From a virus: 64,000 nucleotides of DNA. The position numbers and the translations under genes were made by a program. Under the pieces are notes generated by a model. That model searched no databases. It was given only the letters and a program-made list of their open reading frames with translations, and was not told the origin of the DNA. Shown here one piece after another: positions 3,722-45,763 of this stretch (position 1 is the stretch's first letter; each line of letters starts with the position of its first letter). The stretch covers positions 32,001 to 96,000 of IMG/VR virus record IMGVR_UViG_3300042451_001197. One strand, 5' to 3'.

Positions 3722-4402
3722 ATGCAAAAGAATTTGGTTTCGATGATAAAAAATAGAACACCTTATGTTGGTAAGATAAAACTATTATTTGAGAAACATC
3801 CTCATTATAGGTCGTCAGATAGTTTATTAAATAAAGTTCATTTTGATTTTGGTTTTACAAAATTAGTTAGTCGCATGTTTCCAAATAAAACTAAAGAGTT
3901 AGGTTGGGAAATAGATAAACGTAAAATAAACTTAATTAATAAAAACACAGGAGGATATATACGAAATTATATTCATAATGATTTTGTTTTAGAGAATTCT
4001 TTTTTGGGTGATAATGGATTATATATTGGAGACATCGAAACAGGATGGTGGTATTACAACAATAACTTTAAAGTTTGTGACGATTATCCAAAAGGAGTTG
4101 CCGAGGTTTGGAGGTTTGGTAAATTAGAAGGTTATTACGGATATACTCACAGGGGTGGTCAGACCTTTACTATTGGTGATAAATTATTTGACGAGAATTG
4201 GATTCCTACTTTTGATGAGTTAGATGAATATTGGATCGAATCATATGAACAATCAACAGGAATTGAGGTTAAAAATATTAACGATGAATTTTTAAGTGAG
4301 ATAGTTTCTTATATACCATTTAAGAAAAGAGGTTCTGTCACAATATCCAATTTTGAGGAATGTAAGCAATCCGCAATAAATATGTCAAAATATCTTTCTT
4401 AG
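3722..4402 (+). CDS. Hypothetical protein (start may be 3743)
   Basis: 226 aa ORF; YGYTHRGG..F.IGD.LF motif. Confidence 0.6.
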   Translation: MQKNLVSMIKNRTPYVGKIKLLFEKHPHYRSSDSLLNKVHFDFGFTKLVSRMFPNKTKELGWEIDKRKINLINKNTGGYIRNYIHNDFVLENSFLGDNGLYIGDIETGWWYYNNNFKVCDDYPKGVAEVWRFGKLEGYYGYTHRGGQTFTIGDKLFDENWIPTFDELDEYWIESYEQSTGIEVKNINDEFLSEIVSYIPFKKRGSVTISNFEECKQSAINMSKYLS

Positions 4403-4415
4403 ATATTTATTATTT

Positions 4416-4805
4416 ATGAAGGTAACCATAATTCATAAACAATCCGGAATTCCTGAAAAACAATATAAATTTTACGATAAGTTTATTGAGTTTTTACAGG
4501 AAGAAATTCCATTACGAGAAGATTTAACAATTTTATTTATCTCTGAAAGATTTGGTAGTATGACAACAGGAAGTAGAGATGAAAAGGGTAGATTACGTAT
4601 TCTAACTAAAAATAGAATAAATAGAGATATATTTAGAACTATCGCTCACGAATGGGTTCACGAAAATCAAATGAAGGTTTTAAAAAGAAAAAAAGGACCT
4701 GATATTGGTGGTCAAAATGAAGATGAGGCGAATGCCAAAGCCGGAAGTTTAATCAAGAAATTTGAAAAAAGACACCCAAATTTAGAAAAATTAATGTACG
4801 CCTAA
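4416..4805 (+). CDS. Putative zincin-like metallopeptidase
   Basis: TIAHEWVH plus downstream EDEANA glutamate; TATTTAT motif upstream. Confidence 0.6.
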   Translation: MKVTIIHKQSGIPEKQYKFYDKFIEFLQEEIPLREDLTILFISERFGSMTTGSRDEKGRLRILTKNRINRDIFRTIAHEWVHENQMKVLKRKKGPDIGGQNEDEANAKAGSLIKKFEKRHPNLEKLMYA

Positions 4806-29279: not shown

Positions 29280-29570
29280 TTAAAATTCTGGTACTTCTAT
29301 CTCAGGACCGATTTTTTCAACCTCATCAATATAAATACCCATTGATGACGAGTCACCCACTCCACCAGGAAGGAAACACTCATCCCCCTCTTCATACGAA
29401 TAAAATGAATCAGGTCCCATATACCAACAAGGTTTTGGTTTTTTATAACCCTTAATTAAAACCCAATACCATCCACTTTTTTCAGGTAATTGTTTATTAC
29501 CTTCAGTATTACTATCTTCCTTTAATAAGTTCTTAAACTTATCCATTTGTTCTCTCATTTCTTTGCTCAT
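29280..29570 (-). CDS. Leader protein
   Basis: MSKEMREQMDKFKNLLKE; similar leader to 44736 ORF. Confidence 0.65.
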   Translation of the reverse strand: MSKEMREQMDKFKNLLKEDSNTEGNKQLPEKSGWYWVLIKGYKKPKPCWYMGPDSFYSYEEGDECFLPGGVGDSSSMGIYIDEVEKIGPEIEVPEF

Positions 29571-29622
29571 AATTTCTTTTTATTATAAATACTCCACAAA
29601 ATAAAAAATACTATCTATCATC

Positions 29623-29805
29623 TTAGTAACTCCAATATTCGTTTTGTATTTTTCTTACTTCTTCAATTCCTTCCATTATTTTTTTAAATGCCGGTTCCAA
29701 CTCTGAGTTATCACCATAAAAGATATGACCATATTCTTCTATATGATGATAGAAGTCAATTATCTCTTCCATTTCCACTTTTCTAATGTCTTTAATGTTC
29801 GGCAT
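29623..29805 (-). CDS. Hypothetical protein
   Basis: ORF track. Confidence 0.5.
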   Translation of the reverse strand: MPNIKDIRKVEMEEIIDFYHHIEEYGHIFYGDNSELEPAFKKIMEGIEEVRKIQNEYWSY

Positions 29806-30550
29806 CCTGATTTACTTCTATGTTATCAATATTTTGTTCCAAGTTGTTTAATATCTTAAATTCATTTGTTTCTTCAGTATAAACAATATAACTATTATTT
29901 TCAATCCAATCACCACAATTTAGATAATGTATTCCGTTAATAGTTTTATTTTCAGGTTTATGAATATGTCCACAAATTACCCCAATACAATTTCTTTTTT
30001 TAGCCTCATCAGCTAATTGATTTTCATAATTAGTAATAAACTTAACCGCGTTCTTTACTTTGTCTTTTGCCCACTTACTTAATGATTTTCTATATCCAAT
30101 AGATTTCAAAAACATATCAATTGTAATTGCTAATTCATAACCAAATGAACCTAACTTACCTAACCACTTTAATTTAACAATACCATCGTATAAATCTCCG
30201 TGTGTTATGTAATAGTTGTTCCATACATACTCATCACAAATTTTAATGTTATTTCCAAATTTTATTGGGGTGTATTCTCTTAAAAAGTCATCGTGATTTC
30301 CTGTAATGTAAACTACCTCACAACCTTTCTTAGACATTGATAATATTCTCTTAATAACTGAAGTGTAGTTATCAGTCCAAAAATGTCTTTTCTTTAATAA
30401 CCAACCATCAATAAAGTCACCGACAATGAATAGTTTTTTAGGTTTATATTTCTTCAGTATTGTTAGTAGTTCTTTTGATTTAGAACCTTTACTACCTAAA
30501 TGTACATCTGAAATGAAAAGTGCATCTATTTTAATCTTTTTTGGTTTCAT
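29792..30550 (-). CDS. LpxH/YbbF-like metallophosphoesterase
   Basis: FISDVHLG, VGDFIDGW, ITGNHDD, THGDLYD, ICGHIH, YLNCGDWIE. Confidence 0.88.
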   Translation of the reverse strand: MKPKKIKIDALFISDVHLGSKGSKSKELLTILKKYKPKKLFIVGDFIDGWLLKKRHFWTDNYTSVIKRILSMSKKGCEVVYITGNHDDFLREYTPIKFGNNIKICDEYVWNNYYITHGDLYDGIVKLKWLGKLGSFGYELAITIDMFLKSIGYRKSLSKWAKDKVKNAVKFITNYENQLADEAKKRNCIGVICGHIHKPENKTINGIHYLNCGDWIENNSYIVYTEETNEFKILNNLEQNIDNIEVNQDAEH

Positions 30551-31925: not shown

Positions 31926-32329
31926 TATCTTATTTGAAATTTAGTTACAACCCAATCAAAATCATTGTAATCTGTTACCTTGAAGTAATAATGTCCACCT
32001 GTTCGTTCGCATCTAAATTTTAATAACCACAAATCTGTATGTTTCAATTCTTCAATTATTTCTTCATTACCTGACCAACCATAAGTGTGGATTTCCAATA
32101 GTCCATTTTCATATTCAATCGCGTCCTTATAAGTCCAAATGGTTTTAATGTATTCAATTAGTTCATCAAACTTTCCTTTTCCAAAAAACTTTCCTGTTTT
32201 CACTTCTATAATAGAACTATTAGCTGACCAATTTTTAATATAGTCTAACGCTTCTGGAGTCGGATATCCTTCCTTATCTATTAATGTTTTTGGGTATTCC
32301 CAATGTACTATTGAACTCATATTATTCAT
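31925..32329 (-). CDS. Hypothetical phage protein
   Basis: GYPT, HT.GWSGNEEII, GGHY.F. Confidence 0.65.
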   Translation of the reverse strand: MNNMSSIVHWEYPKTLIDKEGYPTPEALDYIKNWSANSSIIEVKTGKFFGKGKFDELIEYIKTIWTYKDAIEYENGLLEIHTYGWSGNEEIIEELKHTDLWLLKFRCERTGGHYYFKVTDYNDFDWVVTKFQIR

Positions 32330-43142: not shown

Positions 43143-43943
43143 TTAGATGGGTAAATTTACCTTTGATAGTAGTTGGTTTGAAACGTGAGTGTAAATTTCG
43201 GTAGTTTTTACATTTGAGTGACCTAATATTTTCTGAATTACTCTTATATCAGTACCATTCTCTAAAAGATTTGTTGCAAAACTATGTCTTAATTGATGTA
43301 TGTGATATTTTTCACCCAAATATTTTTTAACAATTTGATTACAACTACCAGAACTATATTGTAAACTATTTTGACCATTGAAAAGGTATTCTTTTGGTTG
43401 ACACTCTTTGAAGTATATTCTTAATAAGAATAAGATGTTCTGGGAAAGTGGAACTACTCTATCTTTTCTACCTTTAGCGTTTTTAATATGAATAATCATT
43501 CTTTTGGAATCGATATCTTCAATTTTAAGGTTAATTACTTCCGATACTCTTAATCCGACCGAATAAGTTAAAGATAATATCGTTTTATGTTTAAGATTGG
43601 TAATTTTAGATAATTGTTCTTTAATATACTCTCCATCAATAACCTGTGGTAACTTCTTCTCAGATTTAGGTCGTTTGAATGAAACTTTATCATACTTCTT
43701 ATTTAACCCAAATTTGTAAAGAAAACGGATTGCGTTTATTACTTGGTTTTGTTGAGATACTGAGGTGAATTTATAATTATCCAGATACGTTTGAAAATCT
43801 TTGGAATTGCAGTGTGTTATTTGTTTAGCGCCTAACGTATTTAAGAAATTTCGTATATGCGAAAGATAATTATCGCGAGTTCTTGGTGAATAGTTTAAAT
43901 ATATAAACTTTTCTTCACAAATCTTTATAATTTTAGTGTTCAA
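43143..43943 (-). CDS. Tyrosine recombinase, IntI-like N-terminal SAM domain, no IntI-specific insertion
   Basis: YS.RT...Y, S.SQQNQ.INAI.F, KKLP.V, YSVGLRVSE, KGRKDR, HQLRHSFAT, LGH....TTEIYTHV. Confidence 0.93.
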   Translation of the reverse strand: MNTKIIKICEEKFIYLNYSPRTRDNYLSHIRNFLNTLGAKQITHCNSKDFQTYLDNYKFTSVSQQNQVINAIRFLYKFGLNKKYDKVSFKRPKSEKKLPQVIDGEYIKEQLSKITNLKHKTILSLTYSVGLRVSEVINLKIEDIDSKRMIIHIKNAKGRKDRVVPLSQNILFLLRIYFKECQPKEYLFNGQNSLQYSSGSCNQIVKKYLGEKYHIHQLRHSFATNLLENGTDIRVIQKILGHSNVKTTEIYTHVSNQLLSKVNLPI

Positions 43944-44087
43944 GTTATTTATTTTTAATCAGTTAGACTATACTTGTTTATATATAATAGTTATAAGTAA
44001 TTTTTGAAACCGAAGACCCGAACTTCTTTAGTACTCCCTAATCACACCCGAAAAGAGTAGTGATTCCCATAAGTTTCAAAAACATAC

Positions 44088-44141
44088 TTATAACAAATGA
44101 TAAACAACATTAAAACGATTGTTTATCATCAGTCGTTAGGT
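44088..44141. repeat. attC-like site 1
   Basis: TTATAAC-AA-ATGATAAACAA..TTGTTTATCAT-CAGTC-GTTAGGT. Confidence 0.8.
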
Positions 44142-44150
44142 TCAATTAAA

Positions 44151-44372
44151 TTATTGTTTTGAGTTTAATATATTTTTCTCAACCCATTCAGAAGAAAAAT
44201 ATGGTAGTCCTTCTTCATTGATAACTCTATTCAAATCTTCAACAAGTTCCTTTCTTTGTGTCATTTGTTTCAATTTTTCTTCTTCATTAAATTTCATACA
44301 CTCTCTATCAAACTTAATACGTTCTTTCATATCAAGATTTTTATACATTTCAAATAATTCTTTCATTTTCAT
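44151..44372 (-). CDS. Cassette-borne hypothetical protein (frame open to 44453 inside attC-like site 2)
   Basis: MKMKELFEMY; lies within cassette body 2. Confidence 0.6.
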   Translation of the reverse strand: MKMKELFEMYKNLDMKERIKFDRECMKFNEEEKLKQMTQRKELVEDLNRVINEEGLPYFSSEWVEKNILNSKQ

Positions 44373-44411
44373 ATTTATATTTTTTAATTTGTAAAACAAT
44401 AATTTAACTAA

Positions 44412-44465
44412 ACCTAACAAATGATAAACAACATTAAAACGATTGTTTATCATCGGACGTTAGTG
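44412..44465. repeat. attC-like site 2 (near-identical to site 1)
   Basis: ACCTAAC-AA-ATGATAAACAA..TTGTTTATCAT-CGGAC-GTTAGTG. Confidence 0.8.
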
Positions 44466-44672
44466 GCAATTTGAGCCAAATAAATAATTATATTCGTTCA
44501 TATACCATTTTTCATCTATTGAATGTTGTATAAATCTAAGAGGATGTGTGCTTTTTAAGCATTTATTGCGTATTTTAGCTAATGCCTCTGAATGAGATAA
44601 ACTGCCACTAACAACAGATATAATCAATGGTGAGAATATCTTTTCATCTAACCTTTGTTCTTTATTCATCAT
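44460..44672 (-). CDS. Cassette ORF starting in attC-like site 3 loop, stop codon within TAAC core
   Basis: LIISVVSGS is the translated arm and core; ends CAC-TAA-C. Confidence 0.6.
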   Translation of the reverse strand: MMNKEQRLDEKIFSPLIISVVSGSLSHSEALAKIRNKCLKSTHPLRFIQHSIDEKWYMNEYNYLFGSNCH

Positions 44673-44730
44673 TTTTTGTTTTTAAATTTGTTCCTTTTAC
44701 ACCACTGATTATATCTGCAAACCGTTAGTG
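44606..44730. repeat. attC-like site 3 (long loop)
   Basis: CACTAAC-AA-CAGATATAATCA.TGGTG ... CACCA.TGATTATATCTG-CAAACC-GTTAGTG. Confidence 0.75.
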
Positions 44731-44735
44731 ATAAT

Positions 44736-44978
44736 TTATTTCTTAACAATCTTATATCCAAATTTGTCCAAAAGTTCTCTTATTTCCTTAGGTATTTCTC
44801 TTTCCATACCACCACAACTCATTCTGGTTCCAAGTGGTATTCTTTCCCAAATTTTCATAAGTAGTGTTAAAGTTTCCTTCGGAGATAAACTATCACTAAC
44901 ATCAGATATATTCAAGTTTTCTGATTCAGTTAGTTTCTGTTTGAAAGTGTCTATGTATTTTCTCATTTCGTGTTTCAT
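44736..44978 (-). CDS. Cassette ORF with LTE leader encoded in attC-like site 4 loop
   Basis: MKHEMRKYIDTFKQKLTE-SENLNISDVSDS; TATTTATA motif inside the loop. Confidence 0.65.
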   Translation of the reverse strand: MKHEMRKYIDTFKQKLTESENLNISDVSDSLSPKETLTLLMKIWERIPLGTRMSCGGMEREIPKEIRELLDKFGYKIVKK

Positions 44979-45035
44979 AATTTTGTTTTATATATAAATA
45001 TCAGAAAACCTAAATATATCTGAGTACCGTTATAT
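44894..45035. repeat. attC-like site 4 (long loop)
   Basis: CACTAAC-AT-CAGATATATT...GTTTTCTGAT ... ATCAGAAAAC...AATATATCTG-AGTACC-GTTATAT. Confidence 0.75.
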
Positions 45036-45707
45036 ATCAAAAACATTTCCATTACTACATAATTTACCAAACTTACCATCTGTTACCACACTACCATTAC
45101 TGAATATGGTATCGATATTCGGTATCTTTCTAACACCAGAGTTTATAATGTCCTCACAATTGTGTATGTGTCCGAATAAAGATAACTTTGGTTTAATCTC
45201 AAAGATACGTTTTCTTAAAGATGTGTCACCACAAAACTCCAATTCGTTTTCTCTATTATAAGATAAATCTAAGATTGTGCTTGGTGGTCCGTGAGTGATA
45301 ACAATATCGGTATCAGTTGGAATCTGTTTCCAAACTTCGTGGGTTTTCATTCTGTTTTTATTGAATGCCCATCCTATACCAAATGTTGGTGTTATCGGAG
45401 AACCCCATATCTTAATTCCTTCAATCTCAACGGACTCGTTCTCCAAGTAAATTATTCCACCATCATTGAAATTATCTTTTGTGATATATTTTCTTTCTAT
45501 TGATGTGTCGTGATTTCCCGAAACAAAAATCTTATACTTTATAGGTAAAGATTTATACCACTCAATAAAGTTTTCCATCTCAATCTTGTTTGGTAAAGGT
45601 TCTCTTGGGTTGGTTGCGTCTCCACTATGGATGACCATATCAATATTCTCGGGTATTGTTAATAACCCGTGAAAGGTGTGAGTGTCAGATATGTGCCAGA
45701 TTTTCAT
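45030..45707 (-). CDS. Calcineurin-like metallophosphoesterase (paralogue of 8106; start corrected)
   Basis: ISDTH, HSGD, SGNHD, ITHGPP, FGHIH; stop codon lies in the TAAC core of attC-like site 4. Confidence 0.92.
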   Translation of the reverse strand: MKIWHISDTHTFHGLLTIPENIDMVIHSGDATNPREPLPNKIEMENFIEWYKSLPIKYKIFVSGNHDTSIERKYITKDNFNDGGIIYLENESVEIEGIKIWGSPITPTFGIGWAFNKNRMKTHEVWKQIPTDTDIVITHGPPSTILDLSYNRENELEFCGDTSLRKRIFEIKPKLSLFGHIHNCEDIINSGVRKIPNIDTIFSNGSVVTDGKFGKLCSNGNVFDI

Positions 45708-45763
45708 AATACAAAGATACGAAATTATTCTCAAATAACCAAAAAAAATGTATATTTATTAAT

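Follow-up and report, generated by a model that had tools for sequence, protein, structure and literature searches.

A 64,000-nt stretch of a viral contig (the window; positions 32,001 to 96,000 of IMG/VR record IMGVR_UViG_3300042451_001197) probably holds an integron-like cassette array of a Bacteroidota-type (flavobacterial-type) phage, with a short Xer/IntI-like recombinase, hairpins at the 5′ ends of the cassette genes and, on top of this, re-assortment of leaders and bodies. This arrangement would reverse the polarity of classical integrons, the attC-like hairpin lying at the 5′ rather than the 3′ end of each gene, and the coding strand would be both the recombinase sense strand and the strand that folds. 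Exchange would occur at the outer box, TAA↓C on the coding strand (G↓TT on the plus strand), and the mobile unit would read C-spacer-arm-loop-arm-GTTA-body-...TAA, with all cassettes oriented towards the recombinase gene. In long hairpins (~105–140 nt), a variable loop carries an A-rich start region, an ATG, and 10–20 codons; translation would continue through the 3′ arm, the GTT box, and a conserved extension, i.e., the hairpin would supply the first 20–30 codons, and the recurrent [LI]x[IV]SxVSxS or LLxAV peptide would be a by-product of DNA constraints. For short hairpins (48 nt), the gene start lies just downstream of the hairpin. Leaders and bodies are repeatedly re-assorted at or beside the inner GTT box, probably through homologous exchange where arms and boxes are shared or through rarer opposite-strand crossovers. 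The anatomy of the array, the counts across the family, the border positions, and the re-assortment are shown by the sequences; we infer single-strand folding, the position and chemistry of cleavage, transcription starts, promoter activity, and translation of the loop starts from sequence comparison.

A hairpin array beside a phage recombinase gene

The array ends distally at a metallophosphoesterase gene (Table 1) and lies in a region of small accessory genes. In a related podovirus record, the metallophosphoesterase homologue is directly followed by thyX and the array is absent. Across the whole 106.8-kb contig, a scan for strong TAAC..GTTA hairpins returned the four sites of the array only, which have the form CTAAC...GTTAG and lie upstream of the recombinase gene, all ≤950 bp from it, which is more than chance would give. 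The lone box of the attI-like site sits ~47 nt upstream of the recombinase start. An inverted repeat of 16 nt, of which the boxes are part, bounds the cassette 0 body on both sides, and the hairpin of this cassette (site 1) has arms of 11 bp and a loop of 11 nt. Stop codons overlap the boxes twice: the TAA of cassette 2 (44460–44462) is the TTA of the site 2 GTTA box, and the TAA of the metallophosphoesterase gene (45030–45032) falls inside the outer box of site 4.

Table 1 Features of the array and of one gene outside it (window coordinates).
Feature	Position	Strand	Description
Tyrosine recombinase, 266 aa, Xer/IntI-like	43143..43943	−	Pfam Phage_int_SAM_4 and Phage_integrase; HxxR and Y motifs present
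attI-like site, lone box	43966..43993	−	Plus-strand GTTA 43990–43993, i.e., coding-strand TAAC, then conserved TATTATATATAAAC...
Cassette 0, no ORF	43991..44135	−	~100-nt body and hairpin site 1 (44091–44138)
Cassette 1	44136..44459	−	ORF 44151–44372, 73 aa, and short hairpin site 2 (44415–44462)
Cassette 2	44460..44724	−	ORF 44460–44672, 70 aa, start in loop of hairpin site 3 (44609–44727)
Cassette 3	44725..45029	−	ORF 44736–44978, 80 aa, start in loop of hairpin site 4 (44897–45032)
Metallophosphoesterase, conserved flanking phage gene	45030..45734	−	Pfam Metallophos; 67% nucleotide identity to Flavobacterium phage genes
Ordinary gene outside the array	29280..29591	−	Same gene-start motif and MSKEMRE... 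leader, without hairpin arms

The recombinase scored 199 bits against NCBIfam XerA_Arch (cut-off 220) and 169 bits, in two stretches, against integrase_gron TIGR02249 (cut-off 265); its best match was archaeal XerA (4A8E). In an alignment to VchIntIA (2A3V), the two aligned stretches are separated by 43 residues in the phage protein and by 91 in IntI. Judged from these scores and this alignment, the recombinase lacks the IntI-specific insert and would be placed outside the IntI clade. The insert is thought to be necessary for the recognition of folded attC sites. Among the 80 nearest cellular homologues of the recombinase (≤54% identity), none was accompanied by an array of ≥2 hairpins of the TAAC/GTTA box type covered by this search.

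Relatives of the array were taken from 80 viral contigs encoding recombinases 50–85% identical to that of the window. These contigs contained 293 TAAC...GTTA hairpins of 48–140 nt, all but one upstream of the recombinase gene among full-length loci, in arrays of up to 11 sites. The TAAC/GTTA boxes were invariant, and 271 sites displayed 175 distinct 12-nt arms. Pairing reached 11.4 of 12 positions between the two arms of a site, compared to 5.4 of 12 between arms taken from different sites, which indicates that the hairpin structure is kept by compensation despite the diversity of the arms. No conserved bulged bases were seen; the asymmetry of the sites lies in a 5-nt versus a 1–2-nt spacer and in a bias of arm mismatches on the coding strand towards G:T (352, versus 43 A:C). 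In 200 of 242 sites, the upstream reading frame ended at the box or no more than 30 nt short of it; in 47, the stop codon was the TAA of the box. The 48-nt sites were followed by a conserved ~65-nt downstream extension. Nearly all of 28 related loci examined had a lone attI-like box, [A/C]TAAC followed by TAT(A/T)(A/T)TATATA, 45–60 nt upstream of the recombinase start.

Crossover point and leader–body re-assortment

The initial annotation had offered two alternatives for the crossover point: in the first, a leader becomes joined to any body that recombination brings in behind it; in the second, with crossover at the GTT of the plus strand, each cassette expresses itself through its own hairpin. 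For routine cassette movement, comparative mapping between related contigs supports the second. In two such comparisons (L020 with L022, and L043 with L044), homology ended at the TAAC of the first differing hairpin and resumed at the lone attI-like TAAC, and in a further pair, the match between positions 1548–1913 of L004 and 2724–3091 of L008 spanned the interval between two successive TAAC boxes. Of the six replacement borders mapped, all were at TAAC and none at GTTA, and the box of the attI-like site is itself of the TAAC type. Matches between loci that started at the 5′ box and extended ≥60 nt into the downstream body numbered 47, versus 2 linking an upstream body to its hairpin, although such DNA-level counts are weakened by a site detector that misses degenerate sites. 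Finally, the G:T bias favors folding of the coding strand, on which the 5′ box would be the expected cut of a tyrosine recombinase given the known polarity of the family. Routine crossover would thus be at TAA↓C of the coding strand, so that a cassette consists of a hairpin and its downstream body and forms a self-contained expression unit. A first DNA-level test of whether bodies and hairpins travel together was compromised by hairpins missed inside long “bodies”, and the linkage conclusion therefore rests on endpoint statistics, mapped borders, and protein-level data.

The first alternative is not the main pathway, but the signature it called for is real: leaders and bodies have been re-joined, with the break at the GTT box. 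Of the 77 matches in a protein search with cassette 3, ~60 had in common with it only the leader of 27–30 aa (80–100% identity), and the sequences inspected carried unrelated bodies behind it. In all, this leader was seen on >25 unrelated bodies, and the loop is thus not always tied to one body. The converse pattern, swapped N- and C-terminal halves in proteins, was found as well, with the cassette 3 body joined to at least four leaders and the cassette 2 body to three different leaders in public proteins. Two alleles of one body each occurred with two leader types (MKHEMR in P0001 and MKETRIK in P0003 for allele 1; MSKEMR in P0002 and MKENRIK in P0007 for allele 2), which passes the four-gamete test. 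Swapping is not rare, since among body homologues a different leader was about as common as the same leader (five of eight for cassette 3). As a control, the 44 homologues of cassette 1, whose gene starts outside the hairpin, were mostly full-length and displayed no N-terminal swapping. Searches of viral and metagenome contigs with a 50-aa cassette body, and of metagenome contigs with a degenerate DNA pattern for RIPLGTRM..GGMERE, returned no matches.

A further 647 matches between loci were limited to the hairpin and ended exactly at GTTA, with both flanks unrelated. Evolutionary breaks are thus sharp at the inner GTT box as well, and crossover confined to the outer box would not account for these matches. 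Two readings place site-specific crossover at the inner box. In one, the recombinase also cuts there, on an opposite-strand hairpin, and by fusing leaders in frame to any body makes the array a genuine device for assembling proteins, with the leaders as functional signals. We consider this unlikely; if true, the leaders could serve the packaging or injection of anti-restriction proteins, or could couple transcription from the loop to exposure of the folding strand, and phages would be mixing targeting and effector modules by site-specific recombination. In the other, crossover is routinely at G↓TT of the coding strand, a cassette is a body with the next hairpin, and leaders are combinatorially fused to inserted bodies. 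This would account for a single leader on >25 bodies, for single bodies with 3–5 leaders in which the residues after the box (VSGS, VSDS) stay with the body, for the four-gamete pattern, for the hairpin-only matches, and for the 74% of loop ORFs that cross the box in one frame. Yet the remaining 26% cross in other frames, homologous bodies were found without a common downstream hairpin (in the test affected by missed hairpins), and the mapped borders, the attI-like box, the direction of linkage, and the G:T bias all point to the outer box, which makes routine crossover at the inner box less likely still.

General homologous recombination between repeated promoter and stem-loop modules, as in PeSL cassettes, with the recombinase as an ordinary phage integrase or resolvase, could also shuffle genes in this way. 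The site 4 loop does carry the recurrent gene-start motif of the phage, the array is placed among small accessory genes, and the leader types swapped on the cassette 3 body have ~20–27 nt of box-proximal arm and the boxes in common. However, the 175 distinct arms and the unrelated arms of the cassette 2 leaders are too diverse for homology-driven exchange, the borders coincide with a 4-nt box, a lone box is conserved beside the recombinase gene, and terminator tails are absent. As an account of the whole array, homology is thus very unlikely.

Predicted folding and translation of the hairpin DNA

The claim that gene starts lie inside hairpin loops held for two of the window's cassettes. In site 4, 24-nt arms (44902–44925 and 45000–45023, 92% complementary) enclose a loop (44926–44999) that includes the ATG of the cassette 3 ORF (44978–44976). 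The motif noted with this loop, TATTTATA, is on the minus strand at 45000–44993, 22 nt before the ATG, and the translation, MKHEMRKYIDTFKQKLTESENLNISDVSDS, runs through the arm and the GTTAG box as described. Similarly, the arms of site 3 (44615–44632 and 44700–44717) enclose a loop (44633–44699) containing the ATG of cassette 2 at 44672, and its frame, in the same register as that of cassette 3, gives ...PLIISVVSGS, GTT coding for Val. A third frame (44151–44453) does run open from an ATG within the site 2 arm, but this ATG is probably spurious, since most of the 44 homologues are 73 aa long and start at 44372, outside the hairpin. At each of the four sites, folding was better for the minus strand than for the plus strand, with a clear difference at sites 2–4, and minus-strand folding z-scores of sites 3 and 4 ranged from −3.9 to −4.4.

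The reported likeness of the cassette 3 leader to that of the ORF starting at 29570 was also recovered: 10 of 21 residues agree, and both have TATTTATA 21–23 nt before the ATG. This motif, the usual gene-start motif of the phage, was found among hairpins only in site 4 and related loops. The leader of the 29570 ORF is 65% identical over 20 residues to loop leaders of other phages, and there is no hairpin at 29570. The idea that this ORF marks a second, decayed array was unsupported, the metallophosphoesterase genes at 45030–45734 and 29792–30550 not being close paralogues.

The loop-start arrangement is a trait of the family. Among 138 long hairpins of the related contigs, 92 had a loop ATG whose frame runs ≥25 codons past the box, and the antisense strand yielded seven. 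Starts in loops had an A-rich stretch at −15 to −10 and an A at −3. Matches to sigma-70-type promoters were not enriched (22, versus 16.4 ± 4.1 in shuffled sequences).

A start codon displayed in a loop would also be expected if the hairpins were mainly RNA elements of the cassette mRNAs, acting in translation control, processing, or stability, with the neighboring recombinase secondary. The strand compatible with G:U pairing is indeed the transcribed sense strand, on which RNA selection would give the same G:T bias, and stems of 18–24 bp could be targets of double-strand-specific RNases. On the other hand, it is boxes of 4–5 nt that are invariant while arms vary freely, and replacement borders fall exactly on boxes, as well as on the lone, hairpin-less box beside the recombinase gene. 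Further, arrays were found only upstream of this recombinase family, and the hairpin sites had neither a relevant Rfam match nor terminator-like tails. We regard a mainly RNA-based function as highly improbable; the hairpins may have a dual role, as DNA and as RNA.

That the in-loop ATGs go unused, with the real starts downstream of the box and the “leaders” untranslated, is hardly credible, even if some leader types have pN/pS near 1 and the in-arm ATG of site 2 is itself doubtful: the excess of sense over antisense frames is large, only ~11% of such frames are estimated to be open by chance from base composition, the cassette 2 frame offers no second ATG short of the C-terminus, cassette 3 homologues conserve residues upstream of the next Met, and pN/pS of the loop-coded leader was 0.40 when pooled and ~0.1–0.2 for the MKDL and MSKEMR types. 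For cassette 3, an AlphaFold model from the single sequence (mean pLDDT 69) predicted a leader helix (residues 2–20), a linker coded by the arm and box, and a two-helix body, and gave no functional lead.

Relation to known systems

The closest parallel is with integrons, in which the attC site is regarded as a 3′ appendage of a promoterless gene that is read from Pc, away from intI. As in integrons, a tyrosine recombinase gene lies beside an attI-like site with a lone box and a cassette array. The sites resemble attC, especially the homogeneous attC sites of sedentary chromosomal integrons, as imperfect palindromes with AAC/GTT boxes, an unpaired spacer, paired arms, and a variable loop, at 48–140 nt. 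The folding strand is likewise the sense strand of the recombinase, cassette borders are at G↓TT of the outer box (here on comparative evidence), and near-identical sites are joined to unrelated genes, as with the VCRs of Vibrio. In contrast to integrons, the phage recombinase has no IntI insert and scores below the IntI and XerA cut-offs, and the cassette genes are on the opposite strand, where the 5′ hairpin would give start signals and N-terminal codons. These cassettes are read in the direction of the recombinase gene and lack a Pc-type arrangement. The strand asymmetry of the sites would stem from the spacer and G:T pairs instead of the classical extrahelical bases. The host of the array is a phage, and the same gene is often found with different sites.

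If the integron-like reading holds, a widespread phage system departs from two integron tenets, the 3′ site on a promoterless gene and the essential IntI insert. Its recombination site would double as start region and coding sequence, the same DNA being read as a hairpin and as a peptide. The arrays would make it possible to study, in a tractable natural setting, how structural and coding constraints overlap, how phages trade small accessory genes, and how N-terminal modules are swapped at a defined joint in the DNA. Programs that look for integrons by the IntI insert and by attC sites 3′ of genes will miss such arrays.

In the literature, we found no paper describing this phage integron-like system. 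Temperate as well as virulent phages have been described as carrying attC-like sites and cassettes, including methyltransferase cassettes (Qi et al. 2023, PMC9892861). Those elements, found with IntegronFinder, are either parts of integrons of the bacterial type or groups of attC sites with no integrase; gene starts encoded in loops, a reversed gene polarity, and a dedicated recombinase that lacks the insert are not described there. PeSL cassettes of T4-type phages, which combine a sigma-70 promoter with a terminator stem-loop and are shuffled through homology (PMC2839356, PMC4122927), are similar in that short modules flank small accessory genes in hyperplastic regions and are shuffled modularly. 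The phage array differs from them in having neither terminator tails nor promoter enrichment, in the diversity of its hairpins and their fixed 4-nt box borders, and in its dedicated recombinase and attI-like site. It also differs from Xer/dif sites, including pdif (two ~11-bp arms around a 6–8 bp spacer), in that its arms are variable in sequence and lie 11 to 74 nt or more apart.

The T4 capsid-targeting sequence is a short, conserved N-terminal peptide of unrelated small internal proteins, some of them anti-restriction proteins, and is removed by the prohead protease. The initial annotation had proposed such a role for the loop leaders, and the likeness extends to a short N-terminal peptide common to otherwise unrelated small phage proteins. 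The proposal found no support: the loop ORFs of this phage have no common leader, its two loop leaders being alike only in residues dictated by the arm and box DNA of the hairpin, and many unrelated leader types were found across phages and loci. The few cassette genes that could be identified include methyltransferases and a Lar-like anti-restriction protein.

Organization of the hairpin array and its relatives

The window belongs to a single contig of 106,819 bp (28% G+C), and the minus strand carries nearly all genes between ~27 kb and 45.7 kb. Upstream of a recombinase gene in this region lie four imperfect palindromes, each of which reads CTAAC...GTTAG on the plus strand; the contig, scanned from end to end, contained no further hairpins of the same kind and strength. 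The 14-26 nt lying right of each GTTAG are complementary to those left of the next CTAAC, and each of the four sites folds better as the minus than as the plus strand, with a clear margin at sites 2-4.

Features of the array and related genes in the window
Feature	Position	Strand	Description
Gene with leader-like start	29280-29591	-	far from the array; no hairpin arms
Recombinase gene	43143-43943	-	266 aa
Lone GTTA box	43990		no hairpin; 47 nt from recombinase start
Cassette nearest recombinase	43991-44090		no ORF; ~100-nt body, G+C above surroundings, short internal hairpins
Site 1	44091-44138		11-bp arms, 11-nt loop; arms identical to those of site 2
Cassette 1 ORF	44151-44372	-	associated with site 2
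Site 2	44415-44462		11-bp arms, 11-nt loop; arms identical to those of site 1
Cassette 2 ORF	44460-44672	-	starts in loop of site 3
Site 3	44609-44727		18-bp arms, 67-nt loop
Cassette 3 ORF	44736-44978	-	starts in loop of site 4
Site 4	44897-45032		24-bp arms, 74-nt loop
Metallophosphoesterase gene	45030-45734		conserved, bounds the array; 67% DNA identity to Flavobacterium phages' genes

The recombinase, with a SAM-like N-terminal and a catalytic domain, shares ~40% of its residues with the integrases encoded by phages of Cellulophaga and Polaribacter. It scored under the curated cut-offs of both the XerA profile (199 bits, cut-off 220) and the integron integrase profile (169 bits in two stretches, cut-off 265), and the solved structures that match it best are those of archaeal XerA (4A8E), then Vibrio IntI (2A3V). 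Since 43 of its residues cover the stretch where IntI has 91, the recombinase is without the IntI-specific insert.

We searched 80 viral contigs (L001-L080) with recombinases 50-85% identical to this one for TAAC, a spacer, two arms with ≥10 matches, a spacer and GTTA. This yielded 293 sites in arrays of up to 11; in full-length loci, all sites but one precede the recombinase gene, on the gene's own sense strand. The surroundings of the recombinase's 80 nearest cellular homologues yielded no such arrays. Site lengths cluster at ~48, ~87 and ~125 nt, and the consensus in recombinase sense is [A/C]TAAC-G-K-T-T-..arm..loop..arm-N-T-GTTA-[T/G], i.e., with a spacer of 5 nt on the 5′ side vs 1-2 nt on the 3′ side, and with the boxes extended to a conserved ACT-N4-[A/C]TAAC paired with GTTA-[T/G]-N4-AGT. 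The arms are diverse (175 distinct 12-nt arms among 271 non-redundant sites), matching their own partner at 11.4 of 12 positions vs 5.4 for the arm of another site, and each arm position shows every one of the four Watson-Crick pair types. Mismatches on the sense strand are G:T in 352 cases vs A:C in 43, therefore the sense strand is the one selected to fold.

In nearly all of 28 loci examined, a lone [A/C]TAAC followed by a conserved TAT(A/T)(A/T)TATATA precedes the recombinase start by 45-60 nt, and looks like an attI site. L064 has no such region: there (3767-4489), an ORF from the last hairpin loop continues in frame into a recombinase gene without its first ~100 codons, and the array looks like a decayed platform. 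A ubiquitous 48-nt hairpin with ATGATAAACAA arms is followed across L001-L080 by a conserved ~65-nt extension (44350-44414 in the window) and then a gene start, the total about equalling one long site.

Gene starts inside hairpin loops

The initial annotation had noted that the ORFs of cassettes 2 and 3 begin inside hairpin loops and read across arm and box, giving LIISVVSGS and LNISDVSDS, respectively. Our reading of the ORFs agrees, and the observation is confirmed and holds generally across the family. Among long sites (≥105 nt), 92 of 138 hold an ATG whose sense-strand frame extends ≥25 codons past the GTTA box, compared to 7 of 138 on the antisense strand, while 7 of 77 sites of ~87 nt and 12 of 56 of ~48 nt satisfied the same criterion. 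From base composition, we estimate the chance of such frames staying open at only ~11%. For cassette 1, whose frame is also open from an ATG inside site 2, the start is most likely at 44372, outside that site, as judged from 44 homologues of mostly 73 aa.

The sequence ahead of the in-loop ATGs is rich in A from -15 to -10 and has A at -3. In the window's phage, the motif TATTTATA(W)(W) is present at about chance level; ten copies, among them that of the site 4 loop, sit 21-24 nt before an ORF's ATG. Loop-coded leaders had a pooled pN/pS of 0.40, and those of the MKDL and MSKEMR types one of ~0.1-0.2, although the compared pairs are not independent. Loop ORFs read the box mostly with GTT as a codon (68, with 20 in the +2 and 4 in the +1 frame). 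V-x-x-S and L-L-x-A-V, the peptides that recur, both come from one conserved DNA, GTTA-N5-AGT, read in two ways, and are a by-product of the recombination site.

Probable position of the crossover

Two alternatives had been proposed: crossover at the minus-strand GTT, fusing a leader to any body (the protein beyond the inner GTTA box), or crossover on the other strand, leaving each cassette self-expressing. The second is backed by three lines of comparative sequence evidence, by which routine crossover probably takes place at TAA|C, the 5′ box of the sense strand (G|TT when the window's plus strand is read). First, borders can be mapped between related phages: in L020 and L022, 96% identical in the recombinase region, the arrays are identical until a hairpin differs, the break lying at the TAAC of that hairpin, and they agree again from the lone attI-like TAAC on; L043 and L044 differ between the same two borders. 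Likewise, L004 1548-1913 matches L008 2724-3091 (83%) between two successive TAACs, the sequences around being otherwise unrelated. Second, 47 hairpin-spanning inter-locus matches start at the 5′ box and extend ≥60 nt into the downstream body vs only 2 that extend ≥60 nt upstream and end at the 3′ box. Third, the attI-like box has the polarity of the 5′ box. Crossover there would make the mobile unit a hairpin plus its downstream body, i.e., a gene that brings its start signals along. At 200 of 242 sites (L001-L080), the upstream frame stops where it meets the following 5′ box or shortly ahead of it; at 47 of the 242, the outer box supplies the stop codon, as the TAA of TAAC, and it does so in the window for cassette 2 (44460-44462) and the metallophosphoesterase gene (45030-45032). 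Overall, the initial interpretation is partly supported: cassettes would be self-expressing, cut at the other box.

A role of the hairpins in RNA only, compatible with the strand bias, is at odds with the invariant boxes, the lone box and the replacement borders, but could still contribute. Homologous shuffling of the PeSL type (PMC2839356) could also contribute, yet conflicts with the arm diversity and fixed 4-nt borders, and terminator tails are absent. Clusters of attC and integron pieces have been reported in phages (PMC9892861), in a paper that gives no account of a dedicated recombinase without the insert, of reversed polarity or of starts encoded in loops, and full-text literature searches returned nothing closer. 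The array represents a new variation on the integron principle.

Re-assortment of leaders and bodies

A prediction of the initial annotation, that one loop would be found joined to different bodies, was borne out. Loop and leader of site 4 are found again in L036 and L066/L067, where the DNA is 90-94% identical, and diverged copies are present in L010 and L040/L041; the bodies of L036, L066 and L010 are mutually related and unlike the window's, while L040 has yet another. A second leader type, MKDLKHIKRFNESEENLNISDV, is found on >10 different bodies. When the cassette 3 protein was searched against 5.8 billion proteins, ~60 of 77 matches shared only the 27-30 residue leader (80-100% identity), and the fetched sequences carried unrelated bodies behind it. 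By comparison, the control, cassette 1, whose start lies outside a hairpin, gave mostly full-length matches and no leader-only match among its 44 homologues.

N- and C-terminal halves exchanged at the box junction, also anticipated, were found for the bodies of both cassettes 2 and 3. At least four other N-termini precede the cassette 3 body (P0003/P0007, P0004, P0008, P0009 among its homologues). Body allele 1 carries MKHEMR (P0001) or MKETRIK (P0003) and allele 2 MSKEMR (P0002) or MKENRIK (P0007); with two leader types on each of two alleles, the four-gamete test for leader/body recombination is passed. The cassette 2 body has three leaders with unrelated arm-coded parts, the post-box VSGS remaining constant with the body. 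Judged from these sequences, leader/body re-assortment is real and recurrent. A further 647 inter-locus matches comprise the hairpin alone, TAAC to GTTA, with unrelated flanks on both sides; together with the leader/body swaps, these make the inner GTT box a second, sharper-than-expected evolutionary joint. This joint may stem from homologous recombination where arms and boxes are shared, plausible for cassette 3 leaders because 20-27 nt are common on either side of the loop, from site-specific crossover that is rarer and uses the hairpin of the opposite strand, or from whatever process creates cassettes.

The suggestion that leaders carry a single signal targeting proteins to the capsid is unsupported: the window's two loop leaders have only arm- and box-coded residues in common, and leader types across phages are many and unrelated to each other. 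The 59 loop-started cassette proteins include three DNA methyltransferases, one Lar-like and one PAPS-reductase-type protein; the others, and the window's three, had no family match. Genes can also have leader-like starts without a hairpin, as do the ORF at 29570 and a body after a hairpin in L039. In the former (gene 29280-29591), TATTTATA lies 21 nt ahead of the ATG, which opens an MSKEMRE... leader resembling those in other phages' hairpin loops; the motif is also that of the site 4 loop, whose leader had been noted to resemble this gene's, and the gene could be a source or relic of loop modules.
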